From Escherichia coli (lineage in GTDB: Bacteria > Pseudomonadota > Gammaproteobacteria > Enterobacterales > Enterobacteriaceae): a stretch of DNA of 64,000 nt. The DNA lies in assembly GCF_002854065.1 (NCBI RefSeq), contig NZ_CP024147.1; one strand, 5' to 3'. Of this stretch, positions 20,048 to 45,909 are shown piece after piece. How positions within the stretch are numbered: the first letter of the stretch is position 1; each line of letters opens with the position of its first letter. The notes under the pieces were generated by a model that had not been told where the DNA came from, did no database searches, and saw nothing but the letters and a program-made list of their open reading frames with translations. Both the position numbers and the translations under genes were made by a program.

Positions 20048-20169
20048 GATTTCGTCCTTTTTAAGGTGGTTATTTACACCTTAGCGCAAAGCGGACGTGG
20101 TTCCTACTGGAGTGCGCATAACGAACACAAGCACTTCCCGAGGATAAATTGAGAACGAAAGATCAAAAA

Positions 20170-20259
20170 AAAAGCCAGCACCCGGCTGGCTAAGTAATAC
20201 TGGAAGCAATGTGAGCAATGTCGTGCTTTCAGGTTCTCCGCGAGGGTCTTCCTGATCGC
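20170..20259 (-). ncRNA. ryhB: RyhB iron-sparing small RNA
   Basis: Reverse complement reads GCGATCAGGAAGACCCTCGCGGAGAACCTGAAAGCACGACATTGCTCACATTGCTTCCAGTATTACTTAGCCAGCCGGGTGCTGGCTTTT, ending in a terminator hairpin and U-run; lies in the yhhX-yhhY intergenic region. Confidence 0.9.
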
Positions 20260-35085: not shown

Positions 35086-35188
<103 letters not shown>

Positions 35189-43143: not shown

Positions 43144-45342
43144 ATGTCGACTCCTGACAATCACGGCAAGAAAGCCCCTCAATTTGCTGCGTTCAAACCG
43201 CTAACCACGGTACAGAACGCCAACGACTGTTGCTGCGACGGCGCATGTTCCAGCACGCCAACGCTCTCTGAAAACGTCTCCGGCACCCGCTATAGCTGGA
43301 AAGTCAGCGGCATGGACTGCGCCGCCTGTGCGCGCAAGGTAGAAAATGCCGTGCGCCAGCTTGCAGGCGTGAATCAGGTGCAGGTACTGTTCGCCACCGA
43401 AAAACTGGTGGTCGATGCCGACAATGACATCCGTGCACAAGTTGAATCTGCGGTGCAAAAAGCGGGCTATTCCCTGCGCGATGAACAGTCCGCCGAAGAA
43501 CCGCAAGCATCACGCCTGAAAGAGAATTTGTCGCTGATTACGCTAATCGTGATGATGGTAATCAGCTGGGGTCTGGAGCAGTTCAATCATCCGTTTGGGC
43601 AACTGGCGTTTATCGCGACCACGCTGGTTGGGCTGTACCCGATTGCTCGTCAGGCATTACGGCTGATCAAATCAGGCAGTTACTTCGCCATTGAAACGTT
43701 AATGAGCGTAGCTGCTATTGGTGCGCTGTTTATTGGCGCAACGGCTGAAGCTGCGATGGTGTTGCTGCTGTTTTTGATTGGTGAACGACTGGAAGGCTGG
43801 GCCGCCAGCCGCGCGCGTCAGGGCGTTAGCGCGTTAATGGCGCTGAAACCAGAAACCGCCACGCGCCTGCGTAACGGTGAGCGGGAAGAGGTGGCGATTA
43901 ACAGCCTGCGCCCTGGCGATGTGATTGAAGTCGCCGCAGGTGGACGTTTGCCTGCCGACGGTAAACTGCTCTCACCGTTTGCCAGTTTTGATGAAAGCGC
44001 CCTGACCGGCGAATCCATTCCGGTGGAGCGCGCAACGGGCGATAAAGTCCCTGCTGGTGCCACCAGCGTAGACCGTCTGGTGACGTTGGAAGTATTGTCA
44101 GAACCGGGAGCCAGCGCCATTGACCGGATTCTGAAACTGATCGAAGAAGCCGAAGAGCGTCGCGCTCCCATTGAGCGGTTTATCGACCGTTTCAGCCGTA
44201 TTTACACGCCAGCGATTATGGCCGTCGCCCTGCTGGTAACGCTGGTGCCGCCGCTGCTGTTTGCCGCCAGCTGGCAAGAGTGGATTTATAAAGGCCTGAC
44301 GCTGCTGCTGATTGGCTGCCCATGTGCGTTAGTTATCTCCACGCCCGCGGCGATTACCTCCGGGCTGGCAGCAGCGGCACGTCGTGGGGCGTTAATTAAA
44401 GGCGGTGCGGCGCTGGAGCAGCTAGGTCGTGTTACCCAGGTGGCGTTTGATAAAACCGGTACGCTGACCGTCGGTAAACCGCGCGTTACCGCGATTCATC
44501 CGGCAACGGGTATTAGTGAATCTGAACTGCTGACACTGGCGGCGGCGGTCGAGCAAGGCGCGACGCATCCACTGGCGCAGGCCATCGTGCGCGAAGCACA
44601 GGTTGCTGCACTCGCCATTCCCGCCGCCGAATCACAGCGGGCGCTGGTCGGGTCTGGCATTGAAGCGCAGGTTAACGGTGAGCGCGTATTGATTTGCGCT
44701 GCCGGGAAACATCCCGCTGATGCATTTGCTGGTTTAATTAACGAACTGGAAAGCGCCGGGCAAACGGTAGTGCTGGTAGTACGTAACGATGACGTGCTTG
44801 GTGTCATTGCGTTACAGGATACCCTGCGCGCCGATGCTGCAACTGCCATCAGTGAACTGAACGCGCTGGGCGTCAAAGGGGTGATCCTCACCGGCGATAA
44901 TCCACGCGCAGCGGCGGCAATTGCCGGGGAGCTGGGGCTGGAGTTTAAAGCGGGCCTGTTGCCGGAAGATAAAGTCAAAGCGGTGACCGAGCTGAATCAA
45001 CATGCGCCGCTGGCGATGGTCGGTGACGGTATTAACGACGCGCCAGCGATGAAAGCTGCCGCCATCGGGATTGCTATGGGTAGCGGCACAGACGTGGCGC
45101 TGGAAACCGCCGACGCAGCATTAACCCATAACCACCTGCGCGGTCTGGTGCAAATGATTGAACTGGCACGTGCAACTCACGCCAATATCCGCCAGAACAT
45201 CACTATTGCGCTGGGGCTGAAAGGGATCTTCCTCGTCACCACGCTGTTAGGAATGACCGGACTATGGCTGGCGGTGCTGGCAGATACGGGTGCGACGGTG
45301 CTGGTGACAGCGAATGCGTTAAGATTGTTGCGCAGGAGATAA
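43144..45342 (+). CDS. zntA: Zn/Cd/Pb-exporting P1B-type ATPase
   Basis: 732-aa ORF; N-terminal metal-binding GMDCAAC, CPC motif (IGCPCALV), phosphorylation site DKTGTLT. Confidence 0.95.
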   Translation: MSTPDNHGKKAPQFAAFKPLTTVQNANDCCCDGACSSTPTLSENVSGTRYSWKVSGMDCAACARKVENAVRQLAGVNQVQVLFATEKLVVDADNDIRAQVESAVQKAGYSLRDEQSAEEPQASRLKENLSLITLIVMMVISWGLEQFNHPFGQLAFIATTLVGLYPIARQALRLIKSGSYFAIETLMSVAAIGALFIGATAEAAMVLLLFLIGERLEGWAASRARQGVSALMALKPETATRLRNGEREEVAINSLRPGDVIEVAAGGRLPADGKLLSPFASFDESALTGESIPVERATGDKVPAGATSVDRLVTLEVLSEPGASAIDRILKLIEEAEERRAPIERFIDRFSRIYTPAIMAVALLVTLVPPLLFAASWQEWIYKGLTLLLIGCPCALVISTPAAITSGLAAAARRGALIKGGAALEQLGRVTQVAFDKTGTLTVGKPRVTAIHPATGISESELLTLAAAVEQGATHPLAQAIVREAQVAALAIPAAESQRALVGSGIEAQVNGERVLICAAGKHPADAFAGLINELESAGQTVVLVVRNDDVLGVIALQDTLRADAATAISELNALGVKGVILTGDNPRAAAAIAGELGLEFKAGLLPEDKVKAVTELNQHAPLAMVGDGINDAPAMKAAAIGIAMGSGTDVALETADAALTHNHLRGLVQMIELARATHANIRQNITIALGLKGIFLVTTLLGMTGLWLAVLADTGATVLVTANALRLLRRR

Positions 45343-45348
45343 GGCAAA

Positions 45349-45412
45349 CCGATCGCAACATTGAGCGCGATCGGTCCCCTCGCTCCTCTGGGGAGAGGGT
45401 TAGGGTGAGGGG
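45349..45412. repeat. intergenic hairpin plus G-rich palindromic repeat between zntA and tusA
   Basis: Arms ccgatcgc/gcgatcgg, then cccctcgctcctctggggagagggttagggtgagggg; a spurious ORF across it translates to LTLTLSPEERG. Confidence 0.4.
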
Positions 45413-45443
45413 AAAAGGCGGCATCGAAGCCAATCTGCCCCCA

Positions 45444-45689
45444 TCAACCACCTTTACGAATCAAATAACGATAAGGCAGTCCATCCGTCTCTTTGGCAAC
45501 CAGTTCGTGTTCCATAAAGGTACAAAACCCAGGGATATCGCGGGTCGTCGCCGGATCGTCAGCAATAATCAGCAACGTTTCACCTGGCTGCATATTGCGC
45601 ACTGTTTTGCGCACCATCATTACTGGTTCCGGGCAGCGCAGGCCAAGTGCGTCGAGTGTGTGGTCAGGGCTGGAAAAGAGATCGGTCAT
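45444..45689 (-). CDS. tusA: sulfur carrier protein (tRNA 2-thiouridine synthesis)
   Basis: 81-aa [28 protein letters not shown] (conserved CPxP cysteine). Confidence 0.95.
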
Positions 45690-45909
45690 TTTCTTCTCAT
45701 CACATAAAAAAACGGCGCTAGTTTACGCCCTGTGAGTCCGTAAGCAAACCAGGTTAACGATTGCGTAAAAATTAACCATTGCATTGTCAACGTAAAGCAG
45801 TATCATGCGGCGGCTCGAAAAAAGGGTAAGCACGTTATTATGTTAAGGTAACAGACGTGTCGTACGTATTGGGTTCCCTCACCCCAATGGTTAATCAAAA
45901 AGGTACAAT

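Follow-up and report, generated by a model that had tools for sequence, protein, structure and literature searches.

The window analysed here, a 64-kb stretch of Escherichia coli DNA, carries zntA and tusA as convergent genes whose stop codons face each other across a spacer of 101 nt (45343-45443). Over 801 nt around the feature described below, it is 100% identical to strain 100416, and this 801-nt stretch matches 5,425 of 5,426 complete E. coli genomes. The spacer contains an inverted repeat and, directly 3' of it, a G-rich palindromic unit (cccctcgctcctctggggagagggttagggtgagggg, 45376-45412), which together start 5 nt past the zntA stop and end 31 nt past the tusA stop. Both parts had been reported downstream of zntA in an initial annotation of the window and both are present, with the inverted repeat (ACCGATCGC and GCGATCGGT, 10-nt loop) pairing in 9 of 9 positions and reaching one base further on each side than first described. 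Folded as DNA, the hairpin has an energy of -10.2 kcal/mol (z = -4.7), which was equalled by 0 of 200 shuffles, and the 23-nt G-rich part had no chance match in 100 shuffles of the window. The whole spacer (~101-103 nt) also folds better than shuffled sequences on both strands (z = -3.3 and -3.25). Coordinates are collected in Table 1.

Table 1. Features of the zntA-tusA spacer and its flanking genes (window coordinates).
Feature	Position	Strand	Remarks
zntA CDS	43144-45342	+	732-aa ORF; annotated zntA in matching E. coli genomes
zntA stop codon TAA	45340-45342	+	
Mechanical 71-aa ORF across the repeat	45236-45451	-	reads ...PFPLTLTLSPEERGDRS... / ...PLTLTLSPEERGD...; antisense to zntA 3' end
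U-rich tail UUGCCUUAUCU	45337-45347	-	3' of the hairpin on the tusA transcript strand; overlaps zntA stop codon
Hairpin 5' arm ACCGATCGC	45348-45356		locus-specific, outside the repeat consensus
Hairpin loop	45357-45366	+	within the conserved left flank of type-A BoxC
Hairpin 3' arm GCGATCGGT	45367-45375	+	within the conserved left flank of type-A BoxC
Type-A left flank aacattgagcgcgatcggtc	45357-45376	+	consensus of 15 K-12 type-A copies and the window
BoxC/PIT/TMECO core	45377-45412	+	36 nt; type A, one mismatched stem pair ('A mm', Table 1 of PMC4666352)
Core C-arm CCCTCGCTC	45377-45385	+	
T allele	45384	+	T for C of K-12 and the published pattern; G-C pair becomes G-T
Core loop CTCTG	45386-45390	+	
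Core G-block 1 GGGAGAGGG	45391-45399	+	
Core second loop TTA	45400-45402	+	defines type A
Core G-block 2 GGGTGAGGG	45403-45411	+	
Core final G	45412	+	
Type-A right flank aaaaggcggcat	45413-45424	+	consensus GaA.ag then gcc.gca; 3' boundary approximate
tusA CDS	45444-45689	-	81-aa ORF; annotated tusA; convergent with zntA

Comparison with catalogued enterobacterial repeat families, a check proposed in the initial annotation, identified the G-rich unit as BoxC, also known as PIT and TMECO, and more precisely as copy no. 16. The core agrees in 35 of 36 bases, and in both flanks, with TMECO no. 16 of E. coli K-12 (NC_000913.3, 3,608,684-3,608,719), which Holder et al. (2015) list at these coordinates as CCCTCGCCCCTCTGGGGAGAGGGTTAGGGTGAGGGG, class 'A mm' (Table 1, PMC4666352). 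In NC_000913.3, no. 16 was found in the same spacer, in the same orientation and between the same flanks as the window copy, and Supplementary Table S2 of that study gives the order zntA / 33 nt / TMECO 16 / 31 nt / tusA (PMC4666352). TMECO is there the element earlier named BoxC and PIT, with the ITxF search pattern CCCTCNCCC-N3-6-GGGNGAGGG-N3-GGGNGAGGG[GTC-] (PMC4666352), and BoxC is catalogued elsewhere as an E. coli family of 56 bp with 32 copies (PMC2267715). Within the literature searched, 'TMECO' in its bacterial sense was met only in Holder et al. (2015). The window copy and no. 16 share the TTA second loop and the same G/A stem mismatch, and both are intergenic and multi-copy; they differ in a C to T change at 45384, which places the window copy outside the strict pattern. 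The name BoxC reportedly goes back to Bachellier et al. in the 1990s, and PIT element is said to come from Hoyne and Maher (2000/2002).

A pattern search recovered 23 of the 23 published K-12 copies, and 18 K-12 loci were fetched for comparison. Fifteen type-A copies from K-12 are conserved past the core, over ~20 nt of left flank immediately 5' of it (consensus aAaaa.g.gc.Cg.aCgGTC) and over a right flank, and the window copy aligns with all 15; its right flank resembles those of the lldD-trmL, adk-hemH and ygfF-gcvP copies. Shared flanks together with a shared derived G/A mismatch indicate that the copies stem from a common source. On the strength of these alignments, the window unit is evidently the ortholog of K-12 TMECO no. 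16 and a BoxC/PIT/TMECO copy, a known element that a published catalogue already places at exactly this position.

A dispersed intergenic repeat family had been suspected from the window, which itself holds a single BoxC copy, so that repetitiveness had to be demonstrated genome-wide. When the segment 45370-45420 (51 nt) was counted, it occurred at a median of 18 places per genome, and at up to 34, in 5,425 of 5,426 complete E. coli genomes; strain 100416, identical to the window over 801 nt, has 14. Over the E. coli pan-genome the BoxC loci number about 62, and 143 copies have been reported from Enterobacter asburiae, a copy-rich species. The suspicion was thereby borne out, and the single-copy state named beforehand as evidence against it was not what the count returned. 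All 18 K-12 loci are intergenic, 7 of them between convergent, 9 between co-directional and 2 between divergent genes, and 16 of the 18 touch a gene 3' end. One K-12 copy was located in the pstB-pstA spacer (L014 1001-1035) inside the pstSCAB-phoU operon, showing that the element can reside in a polycistronic transcript.

The initial annotation had treated the hairpin and the repeat as successive elements. Both exist, but the hairpin is not separate, as its loop and 3' arm coincide with the left flank of the repeat. None of the other 22 K-12 copies has its 5' arm in the flanks, and variants of the arm occur at the same locus in relatives: ACCGATTGC in E. albertii, CCGATCG in the metagenome-assembled genome (MAG) L047 and a degenerate ACCGGTTTC in B2-type E. 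coli. Judged by these comparisons, the loop and the 3' arm are repeat sequence and only the 5' arm is locus-specific, which is a new detail; hairpin and palindrome are best handled as a single repeat-derived unit.

The one base that separates the window core from no. 16 makes the DNA less stable in nearest-neighbour folding (-7.7 against -9.2 kcal/mol), a Watson-Crick loss of 1.5 kcal/mol. The K-12 ortholog matches the strict pattern CCCTCNCCC, whereas the window reads CCCTCGCTC, and in the terms of PMC4666352 the window copy is a 'mutated TMECO' and not a strict-pattern TMECO. Because the pattern is missed by one base, triplex stability may be lower here. Of the 5,467 records with a match, 2,718 (about half of the E. 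coli records) have the exact 51-mer carrying T as their best place; censuses that rely on the strict pattern miss this allele, and published copy counts are accordingly underestimates.

Taken as a whole, the segment from 45357 to ~45424 is best explained as a type-A BoxC copy, a passive dispersed repeat tolerated in a convergent spacer, with a probable tusA terminator or protective hairpin that we infer on top of it; we put the probability of this reading at roughly 0.85. BoxC is a short non-coding repeat that encodes no mobility, present in roughly 15-30 copies in E. coli, almost all of them in spacers touching a gene 3' end, and under this reading the copy at zntA-tusA would persist because a convergent spacer tolerates insertions. 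When single-stranded, the G-rich strand could adopt either a hairpin or an intrastrand triplex of the purine motif, as published in vitro, and could stall DNA polymerase, also an in vitro result, with a statistical link to local sequence instability. In the 9-bp hairpin, a 5' arm specific to the locus pairs with left-flank sequence of the repeat itself. A triplex was formed in vitro by consensus oligonucleotides, as followed by CD and NMR, and PIT elements block DNA polymerase in vitro, while a stable triplex was not seen in vivo (PMC4666352). Most likely the copy does nothing that is specific to zntA or tusA, an argument that proceeds from no function being known. As a finding it is genuine but unremarkable, and it matters little.

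On the tusA strand, the G+C-rich 9-bp stem is followed by UUUGCCUUAUCU, as in a Rho-independent terminator, and the minus-strand RNA of 45330-45380 folds with -20.6 kcal/mol. The hairpin may thus terminate or protect the tusA transcript, and its position ahead of UUUGCCUUAUCU suggests that it is probably an intrinsic terminator of tusA or a stem that protects its 3' end. It differs from the consensus in its 10-nt loop and its interrupted U run, and its 3' arm is repeat sequence and not that of a dedicated terminator. Accordingly, a consensus terminator scan called none in the spacer, the loop exceeding the limit of 8 nt and the T run being interrupted. The 3' ends of tusA and zntA were not found in the E. 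coli Term-seq supplements of PMC7815308 and PMC12207403. The initial annotation had favoured a repeat over a unique terminator, and the multi-copy, catalogued nature of the unit upholds this preference, although the hairpin may still terminate transcription on the tusA strand.

A further step would be to regard hairpin and palindrome as a dedicated bidirectional terminator or insulator, selected at zntA-tusA against transcriptional collision. The location exactly between the convergent stops (5 nt from that of zntA, 31 nt from that of tusA), the folding of the spacer (~103 nt) beyond its shuffles on both strands, the U-rich tail 3' of the hairpin on the minus strand and the retention of the left arm in E. 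albertii and MAG L047 are all consistent with such a device. However, the same core and flanks recur at about 13 or more unrelated loci of the same genome, among them divergent promoter regions and a site inside the pst operon, and the zntA strand has no U run after the stem, which together with the empty terminator scan argues against selection for this role at this site. Further points against it are that the zntA and tusA stops overlap without a spacer in many relatives, that the left arm is degenerate in some E. coli lineages and that, as far as PMC4666352 relates the reporter tests that it cites, PIT elements had no promoter or terminator activity. We therefore consider a dedicated device unlikely.

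Another possibility is that type-A BoxC is a two-structure mobile unit consisting of a stem-loop and a triplex core, or that the repeat flank was recruited here as a tusA terminator. In the former case, the hairpin would be a feature of the family and perhaps be recognised by a mobilising enzyme, much as RAYT recognises REP hairpins. Candidate co-varying arm pairs, sought between the bases 5' of the core and a segment 10-35 nt upstream, were ACCGT/ACGGT, GACTG/CAGTC and, at zntA-tusA, ACCGATCGC/GCGATCGGT. Six K-12 type-A copies (L005, L010, L012, L014, L016 and L018) showed upstream complements of the forms ACCGT/ACGGT and GACTG(A)/(T)CAGTC with loops of 20-32 nt and a post hoc P of ~0.01. For the 15 K-12 type-A copies, a test anchored on a right arm ending 0-2 nt before the core, a loop of 10-35 nt and a stem of at least 4 or 5 nt gave P ~0.001-0.02, a value from a test designed after the data had been seen. 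When upstream complements were sought without an anchor in 26 copies, the result was no better than in controls (mean stem 5.1 versus 4.6-4.9), and the anchored excess did not recur in 75 dereplicated environmental copies, of which 18 had stems of at least 4 nt against 15-17 expected (P > 0.2). A scan of viral contigs yielded 10 loci only, mostly not enterobacterial. Given the null result of the unanchored test and the failure of the environmental copies to reproduce the excess, we judged a family-wide hairpin unsupported, and the two-structure or recruited-flank proposal appears quite improbable.

It could also be asked whether the G-rich strand works as RNA in the zntA 3' UTR, for example by forming a G-quadruplex or by stabilising the 3' end in the way of REP elements. 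Its four G tracts, GGGG-AGA-GGG-TTA-GGG-TGA-GGGG, fit the canonical G-quadruplex pattern, and the RNA hairpin of 45376-45425 reaches -22.8 kcal/mol. Purine-motif triplexes cannot form in RNA (introduction of PMC4666352), which would leave the RNA a hairpin or a quadruplex. Set against this, the core, given its composition, has an ordinary RNA fold (z = -1.67), NMR showed that the DNA oligonucleotide does not form a quadruplex, and the K-12 copies have no strand bias relative to genes, with 13 on the plus and 10 on the minus strand (PMC4666352). An RNA role of this kind is very unlikely.

The repeat was also noted to read as an LTLTLSPEERG-type peptide in spurious small ORFs, and such a minus-strand ORF of 71 aa is indeed present in the translation and spans the repeat. 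The remark holds in a mechanical sense only; the ORF was absent as an exact sequence from a collection of 15 billion proteins, had no Pfam match and coincides with no CDS annotated in RefSeq genomes. That the repeat is a gene, either for this small protein or for a small RNA related to Hrs13, is a reading to which we give practically no credence. A weak full-length alignment to Hrs13 was obtained (19.7 bits, E = 0.007, 181-nt stretch), but it lies far under the gathering score of 52 and rests only on a generic layout of two hairpins and a U tail; moreover, the ORF is antisense to the zntA 3' end, and no promoter-like sites were found in 45000-45900. The 71-aa ORF is not a gene, and its annotation as one is unwarranted. 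Membership in Rfam Hrs13 (RF02631) was rejected on the same score; a match to ylbH near the repeat, likewise sub-threshold, is explained by the generic hairpin layout. Over the whole window, Rfam at the gathering threshold returned only the RyhB sRNA (RF00057, 83.1 bits), at 20166-20230 on the minus strand.

REP/BIME (PU) elements resemble BoxC as short palindromic intergenic repeats that mostly follow gene 3' ends, and Citrobacter and some lineages of E. coli have them in the same zntA-tusA spacer, but in sequence they are unrelated to BoxC. A REP/BIME identity was rejected for the window unit, since the consensus GCCGGATG...CCGGCCTAC, allowing up to 3 mismatches, matched only 35152-35185 and nothing in 45343-45443. 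The matching REP (PU) element, GCCGGATGCGGCGTAAACGCCTTATCCGGCCTAC on the minus strand, has 1 mismatch to the consensus used. REP has a transposase partner, RAYT, and known protein binding; we know of no equivalent partner for BoxC.

For the history of the spacer, 80 loci anchored on TusA were compared across other species. Pantoea, Kosakonia and others have zntA and tusA stops that overlap or are separated by at most ~20 nt, which indicates that the repeat-hosting spacer of Escherichia and Citrobacter is a later expansion. Judged from this distribution, the BoxC element is an addition to the zntA-tusA locus and not an ancestral part of it. The convergent frames overlapped by 4 nt or left a gap of up to ~20 nt in L066, L069, L072, L073, L077, L083, L086, L093 and others, from Pantoea, Kosakonia and related genera. 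Citrobacter spacers carry REP elements in place of BoxC, and in MAG L047 the type-A copy is intact and accompanied by the same left arm. In E. albertii (L019 1447-2557), a 1.1-kb insertion separates tusA from zntA and only a BoxC remnant is left; E. albertii has two ORFs there, a membrane-like one of 102 aa and another of 165 aa, with no Pfam match. A 0.8-kb insertion at the same place, and no BoxC, was seen in Escherichia strain SCPM-O-B-8794 (L020). In the Enterobacter cloacae complex (L021, L022, L024 and L026), tusA is immediately followed by a BoxC of type B, either CCCTCTCCCTGTGGGAGAGGGCCGGGGTGAGGG or a decayed version, oriented as in E. coli, and zntA was not detected within the 1.2-kb flank.

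Within E. coli, at least 80% of the spacer is kept in 5,032 of 5,426 genomes and not in the other 394, and at least three spacer alleles were distinguished. The first is that of K-12 and the window. The second has a REP element directly upstream, a left arm degenerated to ACCGGTTTC and a loop longer by 7 bases, and the third, found in 21AR0173 and clone D i2, combines these features with the loss of 8 nt from the third G block. Alleles with inserted REP/BIME sequence were seen in 21AR0173 (L002 644-903), clone D i2 (L099) and 2014C-3338 (L100), and the 8-nt deletion, present in two strains, leaves a simple hairpin only. TMECO loci have been associated with small intergenic changes, a correlative result (PMC4666352), and the polymorphism of the zntA-tusA spacer fits this published association with instability.

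TMECO has been described as widespread (PMC4666352). The single zntA-tusA copy does not ease the study of how BoxC spreads or why its core recurs across dissimilar bacteria. An exact 21-mer, GGGAGAGGGTTAGGGTGAGGG, was present in at least 120 environmental (metagenome) contigs (L101-L220) with a G+C content of 31-72%, and the canonical CCCTCNCYC arm stood directly upstream of it in 80 of 127 cases among the matches listed. Such breadth of the 21-mer and its C-arm could indicate a selected function. The flanks of these environmental copies are unrelated to the enterobacterial ones, and several contigs carry two or three copies.
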